The position numbers and the translations under genes are program-made. Below are positions 3,599 through 42,239 of a stretch of 42,239 bases of DNA, in pieces. The DNA is taken from the IMG/VR virus record IMGVR_UViG_3300017698_000025, positions 1-42,239 of that record. One strand, 5' to 3'. The stretch is from a virus. A model generated the notes under the pieces. The model saw nothing but the letters and a program-made list of their open reading frames with translations, did no database searches and had not been told where the DNA came from. The first letter of the stretch is position 1, and every line of letters starts with the position of its first letter.

Positions 3599-3784
3599 TT
3601 ATTCATTCGGCTCTGCGCTGATTGGACTATCGTATTCCCACTCGATAAGCTCATCCCCTGTCGACTCCATTATAATGTCCATGGCCTTCGCCTTCAACAT
3701 GGCTTCGTCGCGAGAGGACGCGGTCACGTATCCCCAAGCTCGCCCGGTGATGCTAAATAGCACTGCATACTCTTTCTGCTCCAT
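3599..3784 (-). CDS. Hypothetical protein
   Basis: 61 aa. The ATG overlaps the RecT stop (GTGATGG context). Last gene of the leftward recombination operon. Confidence 0.55.
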   Translation of the reverse strand: MEQKEYAVLFSITGRAWGYVTASSRDEAMLKAKAMDIIMESTGDELIEWEYDSPISAEPNE

Positions 3785-4647
3785 CACATCACGTCCTCGT
3801 AATCAGCGTCTTCCGGCTCGGGGCCGTCGCTGTCCACGCCGTAGTCGTTCGGCTCCGCATCCGGGGTCTCATCCACCGGCTCGGCCGGTGTCGTGTCCTC
3901 AATCGCCTGCTCGATGCGCTTCTTCGGCCGGCCACGCTTCGCAGGCGCGGGTTCCTCGGTCGCGTCGATCACCGGGCCAGCGCCTTCCTCGGGGCTCCAC
4001 AGCGGCTCGTCACGCTCCAGAACTTCCGACAGGCCGTCCCGGTCCGTGGACTGCGGCAGGTACTTCGATAGGCGACGCAGGACCGTCTTGCGGGCCATCT
4101 CCGACCACCACGTTTGCCACGGGCCGGCGTTCTTTGCCCGGCTGACGTTGCGGACTTCCTCGACTTCCTCGACGGACATCACCTCACGCTGAACGGAGCC
4201 GTCCTTCAGGTGCGCCACCGCATACACGGCGATGGGCTTGCCGCGCTTCTGGAGCGTCGGACGATGTACGATCCGCTCGCTATCGCCCAGCTCATATGTG
4301 AAGTCGTCGCCCTCGTAGACGACGTGCGCCGCGATGGTCGAAAGTTCTCCGGAGTTGCGGACCTTCTTCAGAACGCCAGCCACCATCGGCATGTACTGGA
4401 CCTGCTTGCCGAACACGACCAGCGCGGCCTCGCGACCGTCCGGCAGAAGCCCGTCCTGAGCCGCACGGATGCACGACTGGAATAGCGACGTGCGGTCAGC
4501 CTGAAGCAGGGCCGGCGCCTGCTGGATTGCCGTGATGGCGACGCGCTGGAACTTCTCCACGCTGATGTGCGGCGGGAGAGCGGCCGTGAACTGCGGCGTC
4601 ATCTGTTCGAGGGAGTTCTTGACCTGGGCGACTAGTTCTCTGGACAT
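3784..4647 (-). CDS. recT: RecT-family single-strand annealing recombinase
   Basis: Start at MSRELVAQ (ATG at 4647) with a GAGG RBS, 8 nt after the upstream stop. Family-typical motifs: LPPHISVEKFQRVAITAIQQ, DGREAALVVFG, VVYEGDDFTY, AVYAVAHLKDG, GPWQTWWSEMARKTVLRRLSKYLP. Acidic C-terminal tail. Confidence 0.9.
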   Translation of the reverse strand: MSRELVAQVKNSLEQMTPQFTAALPPHISVEKFQRVAITAIQQAPALLQADRTSLFQSCIRAAQDGLLPDGREAALVVFGKQVQYMPMVAGVLKKVRNSGELSTIAAHVVYEGDDFTYELGDSERIVHRPTLQKRGKPIAVYAVAHLKDGSVQREVMSVEEVEEVRNVSRAKNAGPWQTWWSEMARKTVLRRLSKYLPQSTDRDGLSEVLERDEPLWSPEEGAGPVIDATEEPAPAKRGRPKKRIEQAIEDTTPAEPVDETPDAEPNDYGVDSDGPEPEDADYEDVM

Positions 4648-4654
4648 GTGTGCC

Positions 4655-4843
4655 TCACTGGTTGGTGGATTCGAGGGCGGAGAGTAGAACATCGGTAGCG
4701 CGGACGGCCTCGACGGCTATCTCCACAAGCGTCAGTTCGTCAGTCTCAGGCGACGCCACGAGAGGGGCAAAGACATGCGTCGCGATGTACTCGCGCTTGG
4801 TGAGGCCGGTCGGGAACGCGCATTCGTCTCCAAGCTTGCTCAT
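4655..4843 (-). CDS. Hypothetical protein
   Basis: 62-aa ORF fitting tightly between neighbouring leftward genes. Confidence 0.5.
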   Translation of the reverse strand: MSKLGDECAFPTGLTKREYIATHVFAPLVASPETDELTLVEIAVEAVRATDVLLSALESTNQ

Positions 4844-4852
4844 CTCAAAGCC

Positions 4853-5056
4853 TCACTGGTTTCCGTGGTTGATATCTGCGCGGACGAATGCGCCCTGACG
4901 CAGCAGGTTCAGGATCGTGTTCAGTTTCATCGACACGACGAACGACGGGTGACACGGCCGGCCGTGCAGCATGACGTATTTCTGCCGGGTCACGTCCTCG
5001 ATCAGAAATGATGGGTCCCGGTACGGCTGGCCGAGTTTGTATTTTCGGGGTCTCAC
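4853..5056 (-). CDS. Hypothetical protein
   Basis: 67 aa. The GTG start overlaps the exonuclease stop (GTGA). Confidence 0.45.
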   Translation of the reverse strand: MRPRKYKLGQPYRDPSFLIEDVTRQKYVMLHGRPCHPSFVVSMKLNTILNLLRQGAFVRADINHGNQ

Positions 5057-5973
5057 AGATTGGCCTTCTTCTGCGTAATCCGCATGTTCCGGTACGCCTT
5101 CCGAGTGTACGACACTTCGGTCTCTGCCACGGTGCCAGCGCTGATCCGGAACCCGGTCGTCTCGGCCTTTGCGCAGTCACCGACCATCGTCAGGAGTTCG
5201 GCCGACGCGGCCTTCTTCTCTGACTCGGCGGAGCGCGCCACGGCAGCGGCGGCCTCATACTGGCGGCATAGTTCCTCCGCGCGGTTGCTGGTCCGGAGAT
5301 CCTGAAACGTGTCGGGCGTGCTGTCCACGTATAGCCGCCGCACTGCGTCCGCGTCACGCGAGAAATCAGGCTCCGGCGCGAAACCTGCGTCAACGGATTT
5401 CCAGAACGCTTCGATGCGCTGGTTGATTGCTGCTCCTATGTCACGGTCACGCCCTCGGATAAACACCCGAGGCGCGTTCCCGCCGATCAGAACGCCGATG
5501 GCTCCCCATGCGCGGTCGGACACCTCCAGCTGGTGCTGCAACTGGAACTCGATGTGCGTCGGTGCCTCGCCTTCCTCCTCGTCGTCGATCCATGCTCGTT
5601 TGAACTGGATGAAATCGACGTTCTTGATCTCCAGAATGCCAGGACCGCGAACAGGGCACGTCACGCTGAAATCGAAGCTGGCGCCCATGCGTGTGACCGT
5701 CGAGTGCCGCATGTACTCCTTCAACGGCTCGCACTTCCACCCGTTGTCCTCCGCGATGCCGGCCGCGATCACCGGCTCCAGCCGCTTACCCCAGACCATG
5801 CGCTCGTTATCGGCAACGTGGATCTGCTGCCTGTCGCGCTTGGCGTGCCACAGTTCGAACTGCGTGACATACGGGCTGGCGTTGAACAGCGCGGCCGACT
5901 CCGTGCTCGTGATGTCGTGCGTGCGGAGTTCGAGCCACTGCTGTTCGGTCAGGTATGGGATGGTGATGGGCAT
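5053..5973 (-). CDS. YqaJ / lambda-Exo-type PD-(D/E)XK recombination exonuclease
   Basis: Start at MPITIPYLTEQQW (ATG at 5973) with a GAGGA RBS. Motifs: TSTESAALF..SPYVTQFELW, GASFDF, GILEIKNV (E-x-K). Paired with RecT in the same operon. Confidence 0.85.
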   Translation of the reverse strand: MPITIPYLTEQQWLELRTHDITSTESAALFNASPYVTQFELWHAKRDRQQIHVADNERMVWGKRLEPVIAAGIAEDNGWKCEPLKEYMRHSTVTRMGASFDFSVTCPVRGPGILEIKNVDFIQFKRAWIDDEEEGEAPTHIEFQLQHQLEVSDRAWGAIGVLIGGNAPRVFIRGRDRDIGAAINQRIEAFWKSVDAGFAPEPDFSRDADAVRRLYVDSTPDTFQDLRTSNRAEELCRQYEAAAAVARSAESEKKAASAELLTMVGDCAKAETTGFRISAGTVAETEVSYTRKAYRNMRITQKKANL

Positions 5974-5993
5974 GTTTATTATCCTCACTTCAC

Positions 5994-6027
5994 GTCCCCA
6001 ATATACGGACGACGGAAAATCAGTCAA
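5994..6027 (-). promoter_or_regulatory. Leftward sigma70-like promoter with a 17-bp palindromic operator over the -10 (recombination operon)
   Basis: The minus strand reads TTGACT(6027-6022)-N16-TATATT(6005-6000). Operator GTCCGTATATTGGGGAC lies at 6010-5994. The start codon of the first gene is at 5973. Confidence 0.7.
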
Positions 6028-6031
6028 CCCC

Positions 6032-6066
6032 TTGACGCGGATAATTCACGTCCATAATATGGGGAC
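6032..6066 (+). promoter_or_regulatory. Rightward sigma70-like promoter with a 17-bp palindromic operator over the -10 (regulation/replication operon)
   Basis: TTGACG(6032-6037)-N17-TAATAT(6055-6060). Operator GTCCATAATATGGGGAC at 6050-6066. The two -35 boxes are back to back, 4 bp apart (AGTCAAccccTTGACG). Confidence 0.7.
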
Positions 6067-6094
6067 GTACACAGAGAGAGGCCCAGCACCGTCC

Positions 6095-6316
6095 ATGAGA
6101 TCACCGGCAGACATCGTCATCGAGACATGGGGCACCGTGCGCGCTACGGCACGTCGCCTCGGGTACTCGAAATCATACGTTCACAGCTGGCAAACACGCC
6201 GGCAGGGGGAGCGCGTCGGGTGCATCCCGCAAGAGGCAATCGACCGGGCGCTGACTGCCGCGCGCGAGGACGGAATCAAGCTGACGCTGGAGCAGCTGCA
6301 TTATGGAGAGGTATGA
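6095..6316 (+). CDS. Cro/YdaS-like helix-turn-helix regulator
   Basis: 73 aa. First ATG downstream of the predicted transcript start, with AGAGAGAGG upstream. HTH segment TVRATARRLGYSKSYVHSWQ. Confidence 0.7.
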   Translation: MRSPADIVIETWGTVRATARRLGYSKSYVHSWQTRRQGERVGCIPQEAIDRALTAAREDGIKLTLEQLHYGEV

Positions 6317-6531
6317 TGGGGTTGTTTGATGGGATTACGGGGCCTTTCTGGGGGCATGAGAACCTTCAGAACCGGTATGAACTGGATCGTCAGGCTCAAC
6401 TGTATGCCCAGCCTCAGATATGGCAAAGCTACACGCCACCCGCACGGAGCCGCCTGCACAACCTTCGCTCCTACCGGGCGCGCATCATCCTCCACTCCAA
6501 CCCATCAACCCGAGTCAGGCGCCAGACATGA
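6313..6531 (+). CDS. Hypothetical protein
   Basis: 72 aa. ATGA overlaps at both ends (with the Cro-like stop and with the next start) suggest translational coupling. No recognisable motif. Confidence 0.45.
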   Translation: MMGLFDGITGPFWGHENLQNRYELDRQAQLYAQPQIWQSYTPPARSRLHNLRSYRARIILHSNPSTRVRRQT

Positions 6532-6845
6532 TCGCTTCATGCCCATGCTGCGGGCAGGCCGTTTCAGAGGCCATCCCGCTTGAACAGCTAGCAACGAGCG
6601 TATCTGGGCGCGTGCGGCTGGCGATCATGGACACCCTGATCAAGAACATCGGGAAGTGGACGACTTCAAGCCGCTTGGTTCAGGCTGTCTACCAAGACGC
6701 AAACGAAGAACCCGAGTACGCGGATAATACCATGCGCGTGACCATCCACCATATGCGCCCCATCATAAGGCAGTATGGCTGGGAGATCGTCGCTGTGAGA
6801 GGCGACGGGAAGGGCTACCAACTGCGTCCGGTCAGGGACGCGTGA
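6528..6845 (+). CDS. Standalone OmpR/PhoB-type winged-helix DNA-binding protein with an N-terminal CPCC motif
   Basis: Starts MIASCPCCGQ. The C-terminal part NTMRVTIHHMRPIIRQYGWEIVAVRGDGKGYQLRP matches the Trans_reg_C pattern (RV.ih.lR.k......I.tvrg.GY.L). Confidence 0.7.
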   Translation: MIASCPCCGQAVSEAIPLEQLATSVSGRVRLAIMDTLIKNIGKWTTSSRLVQAVYQDANEEPEYADNTMRVTIHHMRPIIRQYGWEIVAVRGDGKGYQLRPVRDA

Positions 6846-7156
6846 TGGCCCACTTTACCGCGATGGAATGGGAAATCGTAGCCTTCATGTCTGCAAGATA
6901 TGACCGGTGGTGTCGCGGTGATAAGATTGCGGCCCATCTATACCCAGAGGACCCACCGGAGACCGCAAGGACGGTGATCCGTGTCATGGTCCATCGAATA
7001 CGCCAGAAGATCGGCGTACTCGGGTATGAAATCCTGTCAGAGCGTGGATCCAACTCGCGCGGCTACAAACTGCGTCCGATCAGGAGGGATGATGAAACTT
7101 CGACCGTATCAGGCGCGCGACGTGGAGAGGATACGACAGGAGTTCAGGCACACTAG
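6845..7156 (+). CDS. Standalone OmpR/PhoB-type winged-helix DNA-binding protein (paralogue of 6528..6845)
   Basis: TARTVIRVMVHRIRQKIGVLGYEILSERGSNSRGYKLRP follows the same Trans_reg_C pattern. GTGATG overlap with the upstream stop. Confidence 0.7.
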   Translation: MAHFTAMEWEIVAFMSARYDRWCRGDKIAAHLYPEDPPETARTVIRVMVHRIRQKIGVLGYEILSERGSNSRGYKLRPIRRDDETSTVSGARRGEDTTGVQAH

Positions 7157-8609: not shown

Positions 8610-9240
8610 GTCGGACGAGGACGTTCTGGCCTATCACTCGCGCAAGGCGTCACGCGCTGCCATGCGAGCCCGCAAGTGGGGCGCCCAGGCTGGACGATGC
8701 GCATACTGCCGCGCTCCGATGAAGTGGGCTGCGTCACGGCGGCACGGGAATGCTCGACTGACGAAACTCTGCATGACGGAGGACCACGTCCACCCGACCG
8801 GGCGCGGCGGTCAGAACGTCGAGAGCAACATCGTCCTGTCGTGTCACTGGTGCAACGCGCGCAAGGGGATGATGACGGGTGCCGAATGGGTCGCCGTACT
8901 CTGGGAGGAAAAGGACATGGGCGCACGCGAAACGCCGCTGATGAAGGAAATTCTCGTGGCGCTGTGGAGGGAGTTTCCAGACGGCCTCTGGTATCGGCGG
9001 AACGTCGGATCAGCCAGGGCAGGCGACCGGTTCGTCCGGTTTGGCATGGCCGGGCAGGCGGATATCCCGGGGATCCTCGATGGTCGCGCGATAGAGGTTG
9101 AGGTAAAGCCGGACACCGGCCGGCAGAGCCAAGATCAGAAGCACTGGCAGGCCGCCGTCGAGCGGGCCGGTGGCGTGTATCTCCTGGTGCGCAGCGTCGA
9201 TGACGCGATTGACGGCGTTCGGAAGGCGGTGGGGAGGTGA
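8575..9240 (+). CDS. HNH endonuclease fused to a VRR-NUC (PD-(D/E)XK) nuclease domain
   Basis: N-terminal half CAYCRAP...TEDHVHPTGRGGQNVESNIVLSCHWCNARKG is an HNH motif. C-terminal half WYRRNVGSA..FVRFGMAGQADIPGIL.GRAIEVEVKPDTGRQSQDQKHWQAAVERAGGVYLLVRS follows the VRR-NUC pattern. No stop codon between the two halves. Confidence 0.8.
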   Translation: MNFGGSDFRPFESDEDVLAYHSRKASRAAMRARKWGAQAGRCAYCRAPMKWAASRRHGNARLTKLCMTEDHVHPTGRGGQNVESNIVLSCHWCNARKGMMTGAEWVAVLWEEKDMGARETPLMKEILVALWREFPDGLWYRRNVGSARAGDRFVRFGMAGQADIPGILDGRAIEVEVKPDTGRQSQDQKHWQAAVERAGGVYLLVRSVDDAIDGVRKAVGR

Positions 9241-12960: not shown

Positions 12961-13283
12961 CACTCTCCCTCCATCTTGTGGGGGTTGGGGAGGGCGCGGA
13001 TGTCATCCTCGATGAGGTCGGCAGCCGTGTCAGACGCAACACTATCAGGGCGGTGCGACCACCCTTTAGATCGGATTCCCGCCTCCTCCGCACTCGCCGT
13101 CCTTCCCTGCTCCCATGCGGAGGCTTCGCGGGCTTGGACCTGGGCGAGGGTGAAGAGGTGGCGCTCTTCGAACGGCCACTTCGGGTTTCCTTCCCACTGC
13201 CCGTCCATCCATCCGGACCAACCCTCGTCTTGAGGGCGCCGAAATCGGAACTGTCGCAGGACAGGCTCCATCTCCTCAGCCAT
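12960..13283 (-). CDS. Hypothetical Trp-rich protein
   Basis: 107 aa. AAGGAGA RBS. 8-nt overlap with the HNH-AP2 gene. Confidence 0.6.
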   Translation of the reverse strand: MAEEMEPVLRQFRFRRPQDEGWSGWMDGQWEGNPKWPFEERHLFTLAQVQAREASAWEQGRTASAEEAGIRSKGWSHRPDSVASDTAADLIEDDIRALPNPHKMEGE

Positions 13284-13848
13284 GGTCTGTCTCCTTGAGG
13301 GTGGAGCGGATGTCGTCTGAGAAGTTTAGCGTTGCGAAGACTCCGTGAAGCCGAGCGGCGGCATCGTCATAGGCAAATGCGGCGTCTATCTCTAGACGGT
13401 GAAGCCCGAGCCCAATCTTGCTTCTCTTCCCATTCGAAATCTGCGCCCTCCACTTAGCTTCGCGTGCGTCCCAAGACACTCCGCGATAAATAGAGGACTT
13501 CCCAACCTTCATTCTGCAATTGCGCGAGTTCTCCGCGTGCGTGCAGGACCTGAGATTTTCAGGCCTATTATCTGCCCTGTCACGGTTTATATGGTCGATA
13601 ACATCTGGGTCGTAACCATGAACCATCTTCCAAATAACACGATGAGCGAAATAAAATGTGCGGTCTATCTTCCCGCATCTGTAACCATCACCATTGATCC
13701 TGGTGAACGCCGTCTTTCCAGCAAACTTCCCATTCCACCACGGAAGATGTGGTTGGGCCCTCCAAACCAAACGTCCGCAGGGGTGAAGCTCTAGCCGCTG
13801 AAGGAGATATTTTTGTTCTGGAAGTTGGGCATACTTCTGGCCGCTCAT
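13276..13848 (-). CDS. HNH-AP2 homing endonuclease
   Basis: 190 aa from MSGQKY. AHRVIWKMVHGYDPDVIDHINRDRADNRPENLRSCTHAENSRN is an HNH_3-type motif. YRGVSWDAREAKWRAQISNGKRSKIGLGLHRLEIDAAFAYDDAAARLHGVFATLNF follows the AP2 DNA-binding pattern. Visibly AT-richer than the flanks. Confidence 0.85.
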   Translation of the reverse strand: MSGQKYAQLPEQKYLLQRLELHPCGRLVWRAQPHLPWWNGKFAGKTAFTRINGDGYRCGKIDRTFYFAHRVIWKMVHGYDPDVIDHINRDRADNRPENLRSCTHAENSRNCRMKVGKSSIYRGVSWDAREAKWRAQISNGKRSKIGLGLHRLEIDAAFAYDDAAARLHGVFATLNFSDDIRSTLKETDHG

Positions 13849-14030
13849 TCCTGCTCCCCCTCCGGCTCGACTTCCGGGGCGGTGGAGAGGACGGCGTTGA
13901 TTTTCTGCCGCGCCATCGTGGTTGTGATGTCCCGTTCGCCGGGAAGTTCGGCCCAATCGCACGTCGCTTTCGCAAGTGCCCATGCCCACTCGTCCGTCGC
14001 CTCTGCCGGCACTGTCACTGTCTTACCCAT
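13845..14030 (-). CDS. Hypothetical protein
   Basis: 61 aa. The stop overlaps the HNH-AP2 start (ATGA). Confidence 0.55.
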   Translation of the reverse strand: MGKTVTVPAEATDEWAWALAKATCDWAELPGERDITTTMARQKINAVLSTAPEVEPEGEQE

Positions 14031-14520
14031 CGTTCCCGTCCTCCACGAGGGTGAGGTCGGAGAGGGTGCGCGGCGAACCCCCAGGATAGAAATCGAACCG
14101 ATGGTGATATTTCAGGTAGGCTTGTTGTCCATCAGCACTGATTGCATCGACGATCCCGCCGTAAGAGGCGTGCTGGTGGTTTACAGGCTTAGTAAAAACA
14201 AGGCTCCCCACCTTGATCTCCTGCGGCTTGCGGGAGACGAGGGTGGAGGCGGCGAGGACTTCGTGCCTGAACGCGTAGTCGCCATCGAATGTCAGGGGGC
14301 GCACGCGAATTGATTTACCTATGCCGACATGCTCCACGATGAAGCGAATGTCCCACACGTCGCCTTCGCGCACTTCGGTATTCACGCTCATCACAACCCT
14401 CACTCTCTCTTTCGGCCAAATCCCTAGCGTCCCTTTATGCCGGACAATTACGTGGTCGTCAAGCAGGCGGTAAACCTCTCCGGGGCCGTCCGGGGTGGAT
14501 ACCGGGTCGCAGGGTTTCAT
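14023..14520 (-). CDS. Hypothetical protein (beta-rich)
   Basis: 165-aa ORF, coupled to its neighbours by overlaps. Confidence 0.65.
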   Translation of the reverse strand: MKPCDPVSTPDGPGEVYRLLDDHVIVRHKGTLGIWPKERVRVVMSVNTEVREGDVWDIRFIVEHVGIGKSIRVRPLTFDGDYAFRHEVLAASTLVSRKPQEIKVGSLVFTKPVNHQHASYGGIVDAISADGQQAYLKYHHRFDFYPGGSPRTLSDLTLVEDGNDG

Positions 14521-14603
14521 GTCAGAGCCTCCAGCAGCTGACCGAACCAGACGCCGCAGACGAATATGAACACGAACAGGAAAAACCTGAGAACCCAGTC
14601 CAT
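14517..14603 (-). CDS. 28-aa hydrophobic micro-protein (MDWVLRFFLFVFIFVCGVWFGQLLEALT)
   Basis: The ATG overlaps the upstream TGA (TGATG) and the stop overlaps the next ATG (ATGA). Single TM-length hydrophobic core. Below the ORF-track length cutoff when taken as an independent ORF. Confidence 0.45.
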   Translation of the reverse strand: MDWVLRFFLFVFIFVCGVWFGQLLEALT

Positions 14604-14833
14604 CACAACTCCCTCACTTTCTTCCATGCCCGGAACATCCGCTCTTGAGCCTGGAGCAGCAGCGCAAGCGTCTCCGCGTCGTCGCGGGACCGCATGTCGC
14701 CGATCAGCCGCCACTGGTGCATCAGCTTGTCGTGCTGCGTCATGTGCTTCGCCAGCGCTTCCGCATACTCGCGCCGCATGTGGGCGCCTGCGTGGGCGTT
14801 GGCGTGCAGCAGGGCGATGGGGTCGGTGGTCAT
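14603..14833 (-). CDS. Hypothetical protein
   Basis: 76 aa, helical-looking. ATGA overlap with the upstream gene. Confidence 0.6.
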   Translation of the reverse strand: MTTDPIALLHANAHAGAHMRREYAEALAKHMTQHDKLMHQWRLIGDMRSRDDAETLALLLQAQERMFRAWKKVREL

Positions 14834-17435: not shown

Positions 17436-17657
17436 TCACTCTCCCTTCAGGCCATAGAGGTACGCATTCTTGCGATACAGGGCCGTCGCCTCGGAGGCTG
17501 CCTTTTCGGGGGTCTCTCCCCACCCGCAGTTGACGTTGCACACGCCACCATCCGCCGCGTCAGCCCATGCCCGAGCGAAGTACCTGGCGACCCCATCGTC
17601 GCCATTCGGGTAACGCTCGCAGCTCGTCCGCGCTACGTATTCGCTCATCGTGTTCAT
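17436..17657 (-). CDS. Hypothetical protein (first gene of the leftward small-ORF operon)
   Basis: 73 aa. GAAGGGGA RBS. About 35 nt downstream of the promoter/operator at 17695-17730. Confidence 0.6.
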   Translation of the reverse strand: MNTMSEYVARTSCERYPNGDDGVARYFARAWADAADGGVCNVNCGWGETPEKAASEATALYRKNAYLYGLKGE

Positions 17658-17694: not shown

Positions 17695-17730
17695 GTCCCC
17701 AATATACGGACGTGCACGCACCCCTGTCAA
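17695..17730 (-). promoter_or_regulatory. Leftward sigma70-like promoter with a 17-bp palindromic operator over the -10 (small-ORF operon)
   Basis: The minus strand reads TTGACA(17730-17725)-N18-TATATT(17706-17701). Operator GTCCGTATATTGGGGAC (17711-17695) is identical to the one at 5994-6010. Confidence 0.7.
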
Positions 17731-17811
17731 CGCCTTTTTAAATCGCCGCGCATTTTTTTCGAGCGCTCCAGGCTGCGTGCACACACGGCTTCCACCCCGA
17801 ACCGGTGGCGG

Positions 17812-17853
17812 AGTTCATTTTTCAGACATCAGAATTCATTTTTAAAACATCAC
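17812..17853. repeat. Tandem AT-rich 21-mer direct repeat (2 copies)
   Basis: agttcatttttcagacatcag followed by aattcatttttaaaacatcac; 17 of 21 positions identical. Confidence 0.8.
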
Positions 17854-18047
17854 GTCTCGGCAACCCCAGATTTTATTCCGCAGCGATGTCACAACCGTGC
17901 TGCACCCTCCATGATTTTAATCATGCCCAATTACAACCATTCCGGGCTAAATATGTGTGTTCAAAATGTGGCGAAACGCTCGGAAACGGCATCAAACCAC
18001 CGTAATATGCGCACACAGTGCCGTTTATCAAACCACGAGGCCAGATT

Positions 18048-18427
18048 TGTCCCAAAAATATGTAGTGAAACAAATGGCTTAGCCGAATGTTTCACGTTTC
18101 GTCCCGGCTGGGACAGAAAATTCCGCGCGGTTGTCCCGGAATAGATTAGCGAATTCAACGGGTTATGTGCTTGGGACGAAAACACAGTGGTAAAACCTCC
18201 AGATATATACCCACTGTGTGTGCATACACACGACGTGCATACGCGCGCGTACACCCACACGGGGCGTTTTTGCGTGGTTATTTCGTCCCACAGTAGTAGT
18301 ATCAGAAAAAAGATATATGAATGAATGACTTAGGGGTGGGACAAAAATGGGCCACCGCTGGGACAAGGTCGATCCCGCCACATTTCAGCGGAAATCCTTC
18401 AATGAAATCAGACGGGTCAATGGGACA
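18048..18427. repeat. Iteron-like array: 9 copies of (T/C)GGGAC(A/G), usually followed by an A-run; candidate origin or regulator-binding array
   Basis: Plus orientation at 18109, 18172, 18337, 18359 and 18421. Minus orientation at 18048, 18100, 18132 and 18284. Non-coding, AT-richer context. Confidence 0.75.
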
Positions 18428-18532
18428 GGTTGGTTTTTTCGCAGGATTGTGGCGCCCGGCAGAAATTTTCTGTTGCGGTAGGGTCCTAGGTGTGTGATCT
18501 TGACTGCGCAACCAACCAACGGAGTGAGTGGA

Positions 18533-19095: not shown

Positions 19096-19254
19096 ATGAA
19101 CACATTTGCAATCTTCTTTTGTGCGGCAACGGCATTCATATGCTTTCTTTTGCTGCCTGACGGTGTTACTTGGGAGGAAATCAGAATACCATTTATAATG
19201 GGCGTTAATTCAATGGCAGCCATGGCTATAATCGTCCGCAACCTAACCTCTTGA
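19096..19254 (+). CDS. 52-aa two-TM membrane protein in a low-GC patch (absent from the ORF track)
   Basis: My own translation is MNTFAIFFCAATAFICFLLLPDGVTWEEIRIPFIMGVNSMAAMAIIVRNLTS. GAGG RBS 5 nt upstream. Clearly AT-richer than the neighbours. Confidence 0.5.
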   Translation: MNTFAIFFCAATAFICFLLLPDGVTWEEIRIPFIMGVNSMAAMAIIVRNLTS

Positions 19255-20300: not shown

Positions 20301-20335
20301 TTGACACCCATGCGATGTGTCCATATATTAAGGAC
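20301..20335 (+). promoter_or_regulatory. Rightward consensus sigma70 promoter with a 17-bp palindromic operator over the -10 (packaging, structural and lysis operon)
   Basis: TTGACA(20301-20306)-N17-TATATT(20324-20329). Operator GTCCATATATTAAGGAC at 20319-20335. Confidence 0.75.
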
Positions 20336-20354: not shown

Positions 20355-20510
20355 ATGAACATTGGTTCGAACGTCAAGGTCACGGGTCGTCAGAACACTT
20401 TCGAGGTGGTGCGCCTGTACGAGATTGCCGGGATCCCCTCGGCTAAGATCGTCGATTGGAAGAATAAGCTATGCTTGTGCCATCGGGTGGAGGACCTTCG
20501 CGTCATCTAA
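20355..20510 (+). CDS. Hypothetical small protein
   Basis: 51 aa starting MNIGSNVKV. GGGAGA RBS. First ORF after the promoter. Overlaps the annotated terL start by 40 nt. Confidence 0.5.
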   Translation: MNIGSNVKVTGRQNTFEVVRLYEIAGIPSAKIVDWKNKLCLCHRVEDLRVI

Positions 20511-21853
20511 AAACCATCTCCCTCGCCGTTCCTGAAAAGCTGGAGCCGCTGCTCTACCCGAAGCGCTACAAGGGCGCCTACGGTGGACGCGGCGGCGCCA
20601 AGTCGCACTTCTTCGCCGAGCAGATCGTCATCCGGTGCTTCCAGCGCAAAACGCGCGTGGTGTGCATCCGTGAGGTTCAGAACAGCCTCAAGGAATCGTC
20701 GCGCCAGCTGATCATCGACAAGATCTTCAAGCTCGGGCTTGAGGATCAGTTCGAGATCCTGGAAGCCGAGATCAGGTGCCGAGCCAACGGCTCTCTGATC
20801 ATCTTCAAGGGGATGCAGTCCTACAACGCGGCGAATATCAAGTCGCTTGAGGGCTTCGATATCGCGTGGGTGGAAGAGGCCCAGACGATGTCGCGCACGT
20901 CGCTCATGATGCTGCGCCCAACCATCCGCAAACCCGGCAGTGAGCTGTGGTTCTCGTGGAACCCGCGTTACAAGACCGACCCTGTCGATGAGTTCTTCCG
21001 CAAGTCTCCCTCGCCAGAAGCCATATCCATCGCCATCAACTGGCGCGACAACCCGTGGTTCCCGGACGAACTGCGCCAGGACATGGAGCACGACTTCACG
21101 ACCGACCCAGACACCGCCGAGCACGTATGGGAGGGCGCCTATGGTGCGTCCGAGGGCGCCATCCTCGCGAAGTGGATCAACCGGGCCGAGCGTGATGGCC
21201 GCATCAGCGACGACATCGAGTTCGACCCGTTCGGCGCCCCCGTCGAGATCAGCGCTGACATCGGGTTCCGGGATACCGCGTCGTGGTGGTTCTGGCAGCC
21301 TCGCATCAACGGGTTCGCAGTGCTGCGCAACCGTCGCGATCGCGGCATGGACGCCGAGGATTGGGTCAAGGAGATCGAGGCCGAGTTGAGGCGCATGGGC
21401 GTGCGGCCGGAAAAGCTGGGGCGGATCTGGTTGCCGCAGGACGCCAAGGCGAAGACGTTCGGGACGAAGCACACGAGTGTGGAGCGGTTCATAGCGAAGT
21501 TTGGGCACGCTAAGGTGCGCATCGTGCCACCGTCCCGTAAGGCGGACCAGATCAGCGCGGCGCGCGCGATGGTGCCCCTCTGCCGGTTCGCCAAGACGGC
21601 ATGTGACGAGGGGCTGGACGGCCTGCGCGCATGGGAGTTCGAATACGACGATGAGAACGACGTGTTCAGCCGTGAGCCGAAGCACAATTGGGCCTCGCAC
21701 GACGGCGACGGGTTCGCCTACGGGTGTCAGGTGCTGAGACAACGTGAATTGACGATTGCCGAAGAGCCTGACAGAATGCTGGCTGTTGGTCCGCTGAACA
21801 CGGTGACGTTGAACGACCTGTGGGATGCGCAGAAAGTGAGGAAGCGGAGATGA
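20471..21853 (+). CDS. terL: Terminase large subunit (PBSX / Terminase_3-like)
   Basis: 460 aa. Walker-A-like RYKGAYGGRGGAKS, Walker B/coupling GFDIAWVEEAQ, and nuclease-half motifs (WLPQDA, ASHDGDGFAY). The exact start is uncertain. Confidence 0.9.
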   Translation: MLVPSGGGPSRHLKTISLAVPEKLEPLLYPKRYKGAYGGRGGAKSHFFAEQIVIRCFQRKTRVVCIREVQNSLKESSRQLIIDKIFKLGLEDQFEILEAEIRCRANGSLIIFKGMQSYNAANIKSLEGFDIAWVEEAQTMSRTSLMMLRPTIRKPGSELWFSWNPRYKTDPVDEFFRKSPSPEAISIAINWRDNPWFPDELRQDMEHDFTTDPDTAEHVWEGAYGASEGAILAKWINRAERDGRISDDIEFDPFGAPVEISADIGFRDTASWWFWQPRINGFAVLRNRRDRGMDAEDWVKEIEAELRRMGVRPEKLGRIWLPQDAKAKTFGTKHTSVERFIAKFGHAKVRIVPPSRKADQISAARAMVPLCRFAKTACDEGLDGLRAWEFEYDDENDVFSREPKHNWASHDGDGFAYGCQVLRQRELTIAEEPDRMLAVGPLNTVTLNDLWDAQKVRKRR

Positions 21854-22674: not shown

Positions 22675-22844
22675 ACGACGCGGCCGACGCGGCCGACGCG
22701 GCTGCGTACTCCACGATGGTGTTCAAGGGGCTCAAGGATGTTAAAAGCCTTAACCTCGAAGGATACCACGCGGAGTGGATCGACGAGACCGCGCCAAAAA
22801 TTACCGGTCTGCCATGGCCTGTCGACGACCTGGACCCGGCATAA
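22479..22844 (+). CDS. Hypothetical protein with an N-terminal CxxC...C.H motif
   Basis: 121 aa, MDPATDYCRKCGV...TPCNHGS. Protein-like composition throughout. Confidence 0.55.
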   Translation: MDPATDYCRKCGVAAAEVVQKHTPCNHGSTLVGISHIVRGRRLDALAGTTGGNVALVCRRDDDHVNDAADAADAAAYSTMVFKGLKDVKSLNLEGYHAEWIDETAPKITGLPWPVDDLDPA

Positions 22845-22857
22845 GGAGCACCCGAGC

Positions 22858-23058
22858 ATGCCCCGCCTTTCCAAAGCCGATCACGAAACGCTTGTCGACA
22901 TGGAGCGTTCGGACGACTACCACGCGATCACCGTTCGGGAGTACGCCGAGCTGAACCGGCTCGCTGACCGTGGGCTGATCGAACGAGACCCGCTGCACTC
23001 GAACACGTACCGGATTACCGAGGCCGGGCGCGAGGCTGTGAGGGAGGCGGGGATATGA
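22858..23058 (+). CDS. Small winged-helix-like protein
   Basis: 66 aa. AAGGAG RBS. LNRLADRGLIERDPLHSNTYRITEAGREAV resembles a MarR-type wing. Confidence 0.6.
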   Translation: MPRLSKADHETLVDMERSDDYHAITVREYAELNRLADRGLIERDPLHSNTYRITEAGREAVREAGI

Positions 23059-29814: not shown

Positions 29815-29846
29815 AATCCCGGTCCTTCATTTGAGGACCGTCGCAG

Positions 29847-30845
29847 ATGGTGTCCCCCAATCTCTCGGAGATGGTCACGACCACTCTCCGCAATCGTTCC
29901 GGCGAACTCGCCGACAACGTCACCCGCAACAATGCGGTGCTCACTCGCCTGAACTCGCGCGGCAACCGGAAGACCTTCTCGGGTGGCCGTACCATCGTTC
30001 AGGAGATGGAGTACGCGAACAACGGTACTTACAAGCGGTACTCGGGATATGAAGTCCTCGATATCGCGCCGTCGGACGTGTTCACCGCAGCCGAGTTCCC
30101 GATCCGACAGGCGGCCGAGGCCGTTTCCATCTCCGGTCTGGAAATGCTCCAGAACTCCGGCAAGGAAGCTGTGATCGACCTGCTTGAGTCGCGGATCAAG
30201 AACGCCCAGCACTCGTTCGCCAACGGCCTGTCCTACGACATCTATTCGGATGGCTCGGCGACTGCCCAGATGGGCGGCCTTCAGTTCCTCGTGGCGGCCT
30301 CGCCGACTTCGGGAACTGTCGGCGGCATCGACCGGGCGACCTGGGAGTTCTGGCAGAACCAGGTTTACGACTCGATCACTGACGGTGGCGCCGCGTTCAG
30401 CGCTGCGAATGCGTATTCGCAGATGCTGGCGCTCTACACGCAGTGCTCGCGCGGTCGTGACCAGCCGGACCTGATCCTCGCATCGGACGGCGCATGGCGT
30501 GCCTACAACGAGTCGCTGAACGCCCGTGTGCGGATCACCGACGAGTCGTCGGACGTGGCGAAGTCCGGGTTCATGTCGCTGAAGTTCATGAACGCCGATG
30601 TCGTGTTTGACGGCGGCTTCCAGGGCTTCTCGTCTGATCCGATCCCGGTCGGTGGCGTGCCCTCGGGCGTGAACTTCTACTTCCTCAACACGAAGTACAT
30701 CTACTACCGCCCGCACCGTGACCGGAACATGGTCCCGCTTGGTGATCGCCACGCGGTGAACCAGGACGCCATGGTCAAGCTGATCGCTTGGGCTGGTAAC
30801 ATGACCATGTCCAACGCCTTCCTTCAGGGCGTGCTCACCACGTAA
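29847..30845 (+). CDS. Major capsid protein (HK97 fold; epsilon15/BPP-1-like by size and order)
   Basis: 332 aa. Sits after the scaffold gene. GAGGA RBS. Followed by a stable hairpin. Confidence 0.8.
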   Translation: MVSPNLSEMVTTTLRNRSGELADNVTRNNAVLTRLNSRGNRKTFSGGRTIVQEMEYANNGTYKRYSGYEVLDIAPSDVFTAAEFPIRQAAEAVSISGLEMLQNSGKEAVIDLLESRIKNAQHSFANGLSYDIYSDGSATAQMGGLQFLVAASPTSGTVGGIDRATWEFWQNQVYDSITDGGAAFSAANAYSQMLALYTQCSRGRDQPDLILASDGAWRAYNESLNARVRITDESSDVAKSGFMSLKFMNADVVFDGGFQGFSSDPIPVGGVPSGVNFYFLNTKYIYYRPHRDRNMVPLGDRHAVNQDAMVKLIAWAGNMTMSNAFLQGVLTT

Positions 30846-41655: not shown

Positions 41656-42239
41656 ATGCCACGTAACGGATCGGGCGTTTTCACGGTCATCAACAGCTTC
41701 ACGCCGAGCACGGTGATCGCGTCGTCCCAGATGAACGCGAACTTCACGGACGTGGCCACGGCGCTCACGCAGTCCGTAGCGACGACTGGCGTGTCGGCCA
41801 TGGCAGCGAACCTTCCGATGGGGAACAACCGCATCACGGGGCTCGCGCAGGGCACCGCAGGCGCCGACGCGGTCAATAAGAACCAGCTTGACGTTCTGAT
41901 GGGTGGCCTGACCACGGCTGGCTCCGCAGGCACGTATACGTTGACCAGCGGAACATCGATTACGACGCTGGCGGATGGGCTCATGGTGGTCGTGCGCATC
42001 AACGCGACGAACGCCGGGGCGTCCACACTGAACGTCGACGGGCTCGGCGCGAAGGCCATCCGGTATCAGTACAGCGCTGGTGACAACGCCGTTTATGCTG
42101 GCGCCCTGTCTGAGGACGCGCTGTTCACGATGGTCTACAGCGAGTCCGCGAACTCGGCCGCTGGAGCGTGGATCGTGCTGAACCCGGCGACGGTGCGGGG
42201 GACGTGGACGCCGATTACTGTCGGGACTACCACGACGTA
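41656..42239 (+). CDS. Tail fibre protein, N-terminal part (continues at 100..424 after the circular junction)
   Basis: GAGG RBS then ATG at 41656. MPRNGSGVFTVINSFTPSTVIASSQMNANFTDVATALTQS...NRITGLAQGTAGADAVNKNQLD is the typical conserved N-terminus of phage tail fibres. The ORF runs off the window end in frame. Confidence 0.8.
   Translation, partial: MPRNGSGVFTVINSFTPSTVIASSQMNANFTDVATALTQSVATTGVSAMAANLPMGNNRITGLAQGTAGADAVNKNQLDVLMGGLTTAGSAGTYTLTSGTSITTLADGLMVVVRINATNAGASTLNVDGLGAKAIRYQYSAGDNAVYAGALSEDALFTMVYSESANSAAGAWIVLNPATVRGTWTPITVGTTTT
42141..42239. repeat. 99-bp terminal direct repeat, copy 2 (identical to 1..99)
   Basis: Exact match to bases 1-99. Confidence 0.97.

Follow-up and report, generated by a model that had tools for sequence, protein, structure and literature searches.

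Four GTCC-N9-GGAC palindromes, each lying over the -10 hexamer of a sigma-70-like promoter, occur in the viral genome examined here (IMG/VR record IMGVR_UViG_3300017698_000025, 42,239 nt, referred to throughout as the window), and they probably serve as operators for a dimeric helix-turn-helix (HTH) repressor that the phage itself encodes. Judged from the sequence and from a structural model, the likeliest repressor is the 73-residue protein whose gene opens the rightward operon. The combination of features appears unusual: the genome is stripped-down, a single operator is centred on each -10 box, all four strong promoters carry one, including the late promoter, and the GTCC/GGAC arms are unseen in relatives. 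The control element itself is of a kind familiar from phages, that of the Cro operators, and it does not change the general view of phage regulation.

One palindromic element on four promoters

The 121 nt between the start of the exonuclease gene (5973) and the start of cro (6095) hold two promoters only. A first-pass annotation of the sequence had proposed that these form a divergent pair, and both a direct reading of the sequence and a consensus scan recover their -35 and -10 hexamers at the positions it gave (Table 1), with the -35 boxes back to back (AGTCAAccccTTGACG) and 4 bp between them. Likewise, the 17-bp palindromes that it had described over the two -10 boxes are present in all their elements: the leftward one reads GTCCCCAATATACGGAC at 5994-6010 (reverse complement GTCCGTATATTGGGGAC), the rightward one reads GTCCATAATATGGGGAC at 6050-6066, and both are GTCC-N9-GGAC with the -10 hexamer at positions 6-11. 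Extended to 6 bp, as ACGTCC-N9-GGACGT, the arms are perfect at 6048-6068 and match at 5/6 plus 6/6 positions at 5992-6012. The cro/exo intergenic region contains no further copy with one arm mismatch or fewer, which leaves one palindrome per promoter. The pair had also been called mirror-symmetric, a description that suits the arrangement of the elements but not the sequence as a whole, in which there is an inverted repeat of 20 nt at 80% and the mirrored halves otherwise match at 13-19/40 positions.

Table 1. Positions in the window of the promoters, putative operators and genes discussed in the text.
Feature	Position	Strand	Description
Leftward sigma-70-like promoter (A)	6000..6027	-	TTGACT (6027..6022), N16, TATATT (6005..6000); 10/12 vs consensus
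Rightward sigma-70-like promoter (B)	6032..6060	+	TTGACG (6032-6037), N17, TAATAT (6055-6060); 9/12 vs consensus
Putative operator A	5992..6012, core 5994-6010	-	core GTCCGTATATTGGGGAC; extended arms ACGTCC/GGACGA; centred on leftward -10
Putative operator B	6048..6068, core 6050-6066	+	core GTCCATAATATGGGGAC; arms ACGTCC/GGACGT perfect; centred on rightward -10
Putative operator C	17695..17711	-	17-mer identical to operator A; promoter TTGACA (17730..17725), N18, TATATT (17706..17701); 11/12
Putative operator D	20319..20335	+	GTCCATATATTAAGGAC, flanks GT/AT; most divergent copy; promoter TTGACA (20301-20306), N17, TATATT (20324-20329); 11/12
P22_Cro-family HTH protein, 73 aa	6095..6316	+	first gene of rightward operon; proposed operator binder
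Two paralogous Trans_reg_C-only winged-helix proteins	6528-6845 and 6842-7156	+	OmpR-type domain; rival DNA-binder candidates
YqaJ-type exonuclease	5053..5973	-	PF09588; first gene of leftward operon A; GAGGA 8 nt before ATG at 5973
RecT recombinase	3784..4692	-	PF03837; leftward operon A; gene caller start downstream of 4692 ATG (287 aa, not 302 aa)
First gene of block C	17436..17657	-	73 aa, without family match
First genes after promoter D	20355..21853	+	51-aa ORF (20355-20510), terminase large subunit (20471-21853)

Although both palindromic sites placed at 5994-6066 are real, half of the sites lie outside these coordinates. The exact pattern GTCC-N9-GGAC is found six times in the window against 1.45 expected, a number reached by none of 100 shuffles, and chance is excluded as the source of these sites. 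When perfect 4-N9-4 palindromes of any sequence were collected on both strands, only four of the 450 combined TAnnnT at positions 6-11 with a -35 box matching at 5/6 or better at a distance of 16-18 nt, and all four bear GTCC/GGAC arms. The promoters to which they belong score 9-11/12 with spacers of N16-N18, and promoters C and D are the two best sigma-70 matches in the window. The arms are palindromic at all four sites while centres and flanks vary, although A and C share an identical stretch of 18 nt, and the centre of each operator falls on the fourth base of its -10 hexamer. Read in the direction of transcription, the sites follow a common layout, namely a -35 box, 11-13 nt, GTCC-R-TAWWWT-RR-GGAC, a purine-rich motif resembling a Shine-Dalgarno (SD) sequence and an ATG; the distance from the SD-like motif to the ATG is 5-8 nt at A, C and D and about 13 nt at B. 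Each of the four promoters precedes the first gene of a block of co-directional genes. Because the element sits on four promoters, one of them ahead of the terminase and structural genes, the reading shifts from a local switch to genome-wide control.

Two exact copies of the pattern stand apart from this layout. One, at 14429, is inside an ORF and has no promoter. The other, at 29822, is the core of a longer palindrome (CGGTCC-N9-GGACCG, 29820-29840) in the 32 nt that precede the gene at 29847; it is accompanied by neither a -35 nor a -10 box, its 3' arm includes the GAGGA ribosome-binding site of the next gene, and it looks more like an RNA hairpin over the SD sequence than like an operator. 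A role at the RNA level was also considered for the promoter palindromes and is unlikely, in that the predicted transcription starts fall at or past the 3' arm and the palindrome is not transcribed as a hairpin; the nearby non-coding region yields no Rfam match. Just upstream, on the -35 side of promoter C, there are two tandem 21-bp copies, GAGTTCATTTTTCAGACATCA and GAATTCATTTTTAAAACATCA, at 17811-17852.

An exact direct repeat of 99 bp at the termini (1-99 and 42141-42239) identifies the record as a complete circular assembly, about 42.1 kb long, and a tail-fibre-like ORF spans the junction of the circle (1-99 / 42141-42239). Gene units were defined by GC3-guided ORF calling and by Pfam family scans of 60 ORFs, which took in part of the long structural ORFs. 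The leftward unit at the divergent pair (block A) is an exo/RecT operon, as had been proposed from the sequence: the YqaJ exonuclease is its first gene, RecT lies within it and small genes complete it. Block B, rightward, comprises cro, a 72-aa ORF, the two Trans_reg_C winged-helix paralogs, a helicase, an HNH/VRR-NUC protein and a primase. Block C runs leftward from 17657 to about 12073 and consists of about 15 small genes, mostly without an assigned family, together with an HNH-AP2 endonuclease. This HNH_3 + AP2 protein (13276-13989, minus strand), embedded in an early leftward operon, is of the type usually called homing endonucleases. Between blocks C and D lie a 750-bp AT-rich gap and then a short plus-strand block that extends to an Sf6-type small terminase; ahead of that short block is a promoter-like sequence, TTGGGA-N18-TATAAT (19170-19199, 10/12), that has no GTCC/GGAC palindrome, so that not every candidate promoter in the window bears the operator. 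The terminase large subunit heads a continuous plus-strand run of structural, tail-spike and lysis genes, which we infer to be one late operon transcribed from promoter D. After the terminase gene, a 106-aa ORF (22738-23058) gives a sub-threshold match to PadR-like winged-helix proteins (E 0.002, 18.5 bits against a cut-off of 27).

The absence of a CI gene between the two divergent promoters, which the first-pass annotation had pointed out, extends to the rest of the window: tblastn with the CI proteins of relatives gave no match there, and the Pfam scans of 60 ORFs returned neither an HTH_3/S24-type repressor nor any clear HTH repressor other than the 6095-6316 product. The integrase of a temperate relative (L004, described below) has no homologue in the window, and no Phage_integrase match appeared among the ORFs scanned against Pfam. 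The window contains no tRNA gene. No close DNA relative was found in INPHARED, and the proteins of isolated phages reach at most about 40% identity to those of the window.

A divergent Cro-family protein and its relatives

That the first rightward gene encodes a Cro-type HTH protein, as initially suggested, is borne out by a family profile, an AlphaFold2 model and fold matches, even though the sequence of the protein by itself says little. Taken alone, the 73-aa protein has no PF14549 match at E<=0.1; the domains it resembles most are SpoIIID, HTH_29 and YdaS_toxin, all below their cut-offs, and a word search from the single sequence found no database homologue beyond the protein's own copies on three near-identical Logan contigs. 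Relatives were found through an alignment seeded with the neighbours of exonuclease homologues. On contigs that carry such homologues, the gene in the same position encodes a homologous protein of 73-85 aa with 35-40% identity to the window protein, and the alignment-seeded scan reached 80 viral loci and at least 814 protein clusters, none more than 47% identical to it. Identity between the window protein and members of this family is 33-46% over most of its length. PF14549 (P22_Cro) is matched by 32 of the 35 aligned members (best E 4.5e-10), and a search of the PDB with the family profile retrieved XPH1 (a hybrid of Xfaso 1 and Pfl 6 Cro), P22 Cro (1rzs, 2.9e-5) and Xfaso 1 Cro (3bd1, 5.1e-5), with E-values from 6e-6 to 5e-5.

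The AlphaFold2 model of the protein (pLDDT 90.9) has helices at residues 4-12, 15-22, 26-31, 46-59 and 65-70, and thus presents the five-helix, all-alpha fold of the P22_Cro type with its HTH at helices 2 and 3; residues 15-22 form helix 2 and residues 26-31 (KSYVHS) the recognition helix. The top Foldseek matches are 3bd1, 5w8y, 6on0, 2hin and 1rzs (probability 0.96-1.0, TM 0.52-0.71, with weak E-values, as expected at 73 residues), such that the best fold matches of the model are the Cro proteins of Xfaso 1, N15 and P22. By sequence relatives and model, the 73-aa product is best described as a divergent member of the P22_Cro family, its membership being transitive. Family members in Paracoccus phages are annotated as 'Cro-like protein', in Pben1 beside a 'CI-like repressor'.

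The closest relative is L004, an uncultured temperate phage (Logan SRR33870482) that has in common with the window the exonuclease (63% identity), primase (57%), RecT (55%), helicase (54%) and HNH modules. A CI (HTH_3, 199 aa) is encoded between its cro and exo genes, and an integrase gene follows RecT. Several of its promoters consist of TTGACG or TTGATC, 12 nt and a 17-bp palindrome with GAAATT, GATAAT or GATATT at positions 6-11, as in the sequence before exo, TTGACG + 12 nt + GTTGAGATATTCCCAAC; similar sites stand before two other gene blocks. Its GTTG-N9-CAAC operator recurs on promoters far from CI and cro, at 138-154, 2694-2710 and 9136-9152 (also at 5832-5848, 9094-9110 and 14599-14615), and since these lie well outside the CI/cro region, a genome-wide, one-operator-per-promoter organization is apparently common to the window and L004. 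The exact -10 register is not a family-wide trait: when a 4-N9-4 palindrome upstream of cro was strictly required to hold a -10 at positions 6-11, only 4/67 relatives passed, and the register is common to the closest ones (L004, L008 and the L011 group).

What differs between the window and its relatives is the sequence of the arms, and with it that of the recognition helix. The window pairs GTCC/GGAC arms with the helix KSYVHSW, whereas L004 pairs GTTG/CAAC with SSVARW; elsewhere in the family a long TGAGAAT...ATTCTCA palindrome accompanies the helix DPSTIHRW, and GGTGT-N7-ACACC accompanies HSWVVRW. Both the GTCC specificity and the KSYVHSW helix are unique among more than 800 family clusters. 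In 67 distinct loci, GTTG-N9-CAAC with up to one mismatch was counted 91 times within the 150 nt that precede cro and 140 times over 310 kb of flanking sequence, an enrichment of about 20-fold that involves 48 of the loci, and GTCC-N9-GGAC is not enriched upstream of cro in the same set. This covariation of arms with helix fits the 73-aa protein as the binder, with the limits that two of the four specificity classes, including that of the window, are single lineages and that the relatives are not independent samples. A CI of the L004 type matches in 23/90 loci, usually just upstream of cro and divergent from it. At least eight other lineages resemble the window in having the exonuclease as the closest long ORF that diverges from cro on its upstream side. 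Operators thus appear to persist without CI in several relatives, where small intervening genes are possible.

It is informative to set this arrangement beside the lambdoid systems. As with the Cro proteins and operators of lambda (OR/OL) and P22 (PF14549), the rightward early operon begins with the gene for a small HTH protein, two-fold symmetric operators of about 17 bp lie over divergent early promoters, and recombination genes are found to one side with cro and replication genes to the other; the repression proposed here would likewise act by promoter occlusion, and the modelled all-alpha fold is that of P22 Cro. In contrast to the tripartite OR/OL of lambda and P22, the window has one operator per promoter, it lacks CI, PRM and integrase, and it carries the same GTCC/GGAC element on two further promoters far from cro, among them the terminase/structural one. 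The features of the lambdoid CI/Cro bistable switch that were tested, that is, a divergent CI, multiple adjacent operators (OR1-3) and integration functions, were not found in the window, and for this reason the system is not such a switch. Structurally, N15 Cro and Xfaso 1 Cro (PDB 6on0, 2hin, 3bd1) are the best matches (TM 0.6-0.7, 17-26% identity); N15 Cro has been solved as a dimer on symmetric operator DNA. The window protein, modelled here as a monomer, is remote from both in sequence. Closer to the window, L004 and Paracoccus phage vB_PbeS_Pben1 encode homologous Cro proteins, and L004 also has the same layout of -35, 12 nt and palindrome, but both carry CI next to cro, and L004 differs further in its integrase and its GTTG/CAAC arms.

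Other binders and other origins for the palindromes

The presence of CI in these relatives raises the question of whether the palindromes of the window were made for such a protein. They may be operators of a CI-type repressor that has since been lost, kept as relics or effective solely in trans, when the phage enters a cell in which a related prophage makes a CI of GTCC specificity (superinfection immunity), with Cro binding secondary or absent. L004, in which CI, Cro, integrase and operators on many promoters occur together, has the layout expected for the silencing of a prophage, a CI of that type recurs beside cro in the proportion of loci given above, the window is a complete circle without CI or integrase, and an operator on the late promoter D better suits a maintenance repressor than it does Cro. 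A similar situation is known in mycobacteriophages, where the lytic D29 lacks the repressor gene of its temperate relative L5 and has kept repressor sites genome-wide. The L5 gp71 sites, however, are 13-bp 'stoperators' that are asymmetric and in many cases fall within transcribed regions; those of the window are palindromes over -10 boxes, and the candidate binder, Cro, is still encoded. (Staphylococcus aureus phage SA97, considered as a possible precedent, has neither cI nor cro and is not parallel.) Against an origin in a lost CI, the arms are intact at all four sites, although sigma-70 can dispense with them and the neighbouring bases vary, a pattern that argues for current selection. The uniqueness of both the GTCC specificity and the KSYVHSW helix speaks against a lost CI as well, in that operator and Cro appear to have changed together in the lineage of the window, and pattern searches of IMG/VR, genomes and metagenomes found no contig that combines a GTCC operator with a CI. 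We regard a lost CI as rather improbable. Nonetheless, in temperate relatives CI probably binds the same sites and could be their main user, and the geometry of the sites could have been shaped by CI and not by Cro.

It is also worth considering that something other than the 73-aa protein reads the sites today. The candidates would be the winged-helix paralogs (6528-7156), singly or together, which the first-pass annotation left out of account; some phage protein that has escaped recognition; or a regulator of the host through which the phage senses the state of the cell. The winged-helix pair scores above the Pfam threshold (28-29 bits against a cut-off of 26.2) and is specific to the window genome, as is the GTCC specificity, and a cluster of YGTCCC iterons at 18047-18430 has the same half-site core. 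On the other hand, OmpR-type domains usually bind direct repeats, not 17-bp palindromes, and the palindrome geometry is common to relatives that lack the winged-helix pair but have a Cro homologue. A host factor could be hinted at by a few unrelated viral contigs in which GTCC-N-TATATT-NN-GGAC occurs with a -35-like hexamer at 16-18 nt, in seven of 118 IMG/VR pattern hits against about 1.6 expected. These contigs have no Cro-family gene and were chosen by a pattern that already includes a -10, and we know of no host regulator, LexA included, with a box that matches GTCC-N9-GGAC. A binder of any of these kinds seems unlikely to us.

A simpler explanation would do without any binder: the sites would be four copies of one promoter cassette, with the symmetry a by-product of the -10 box (A at position 2, T at position 6) and of shared ancestry. 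The identity of A and C over 18 nt is as a cassette would predict, and the symmetric A7/T11 of every site are indeed the invariant A and T of the -10 hexamer. All four sites, however, have symmetric GTCC/GGAC arms outside the -10, even though the centre and both flanks of B and D are unlike those of A and C. The 11-13 nt between -35 and palindrome are unrelated in sequence, and the relatives keep the symmetry with other arms. With chance excluded in addition, this explanation is very hard to sustain.

Proposed regulation and neighbouring features

The reading that we prefer, with the 73-aa Cro-family protein as the repressor, suggests a simple scheme. The protein would be made from promoter B; since each operator is centred on the -10, a bound dimer would cover that element and would block formation of the open complex by sigma-70 RNA polymerase. 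It would in this way exert negative feedback on its own operon, which includes the replication genes, and would repress the operons at A (exo/RecT) and at C (small early genes, leftward). A weaker action is proposed at promoter D, ahead of the terminase and structural genes, because operator D departs most from the other three. Binding by the 73-aa protein, repression through that binding and a gradation of affinities are what we infer from the sequence. For a late-gene promoter such as D, control by a repressor whose level rises with time is odd. No recognisable late activator, antiterminator or sigma factor was found in the genome.

One can imagine, as a speculation that we hold to be doubtful, that a single Cro-family autorepressor runs the whole temporal programme through graded operators at all of the strong sigma-70 promoters. 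Promoters A, B and C, which have the best arms, would be clamped as Cro and genome copies rise, and D, with the weakest arms, would escape and scale with the template; or Cro or its winged-helix neighbours might also read the YGTCCC iterons, coupling transcription control to replication or packaging.

If binding is confirmed, the window would offer a compact and fully specified regulon, made up of one 73-aa protein and four near-consensus promoters with a single -10-centred operator on each, in a 42-kb genome from which the lysogeny side of the classic switch has been lost. It would then be a clean natural system in which to study Cro acting alone in a lytic cycle and the relation of operator quality to timing. 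The P22/N15/Xfaso Cro family has been used for studying the evolution of DNA recognition, and together with the relatives that have GTTG, GGTGT or other arms, the pairing of GTCC with KSYVHSW would add a specificity pair to that family. The parts might also find use as orthogonal repressor-promoter pairs.

Searches beyond the family returned sequences resembling the operators in scattered contexts. The exact 17-mer of sites A and C is absent from IMG/VR, and five genome and ten metagenome matches to it were set aside as unrelated chance matches. A degenerate operator pattern gave the 118 IMG/VR hits mentioned above, which are single-match loci without a Cro-family gene. The seven with a -35-like hexamer include L127/L135/L151, L128, L170/L208 and L201, and the DNA examined around them contains no Cro-family gene; they may be coincidental or may point to a factor that is more widespread.

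Two features of the window itself deserve mention. The winged-helix paralogs, which are 34% identical over 62 residues and have no counterpart in roughly 90 related loci that were fetched, sit where lambdoid phages carry cII-like activators. The iteron cluster lies in an AT-rich non-coding stretch (17740-18490) and holds, within 320 bp, seven of the 13 copies of T[TC]GTCCC[AG] in the window; the stretch also contains TGGGACA at 18422 and a variant, CTGTCCCAG, at 18109-18118. Left copies read GTCCC and right copies GGGAC, and the core, GTCC, is that of the operator half-site at a different spacing. The cluster may function as an origin, as a packaging site or as an array for an activator, and the recurrence of GTCC within it could point to a binder other than the 73-aa protein.
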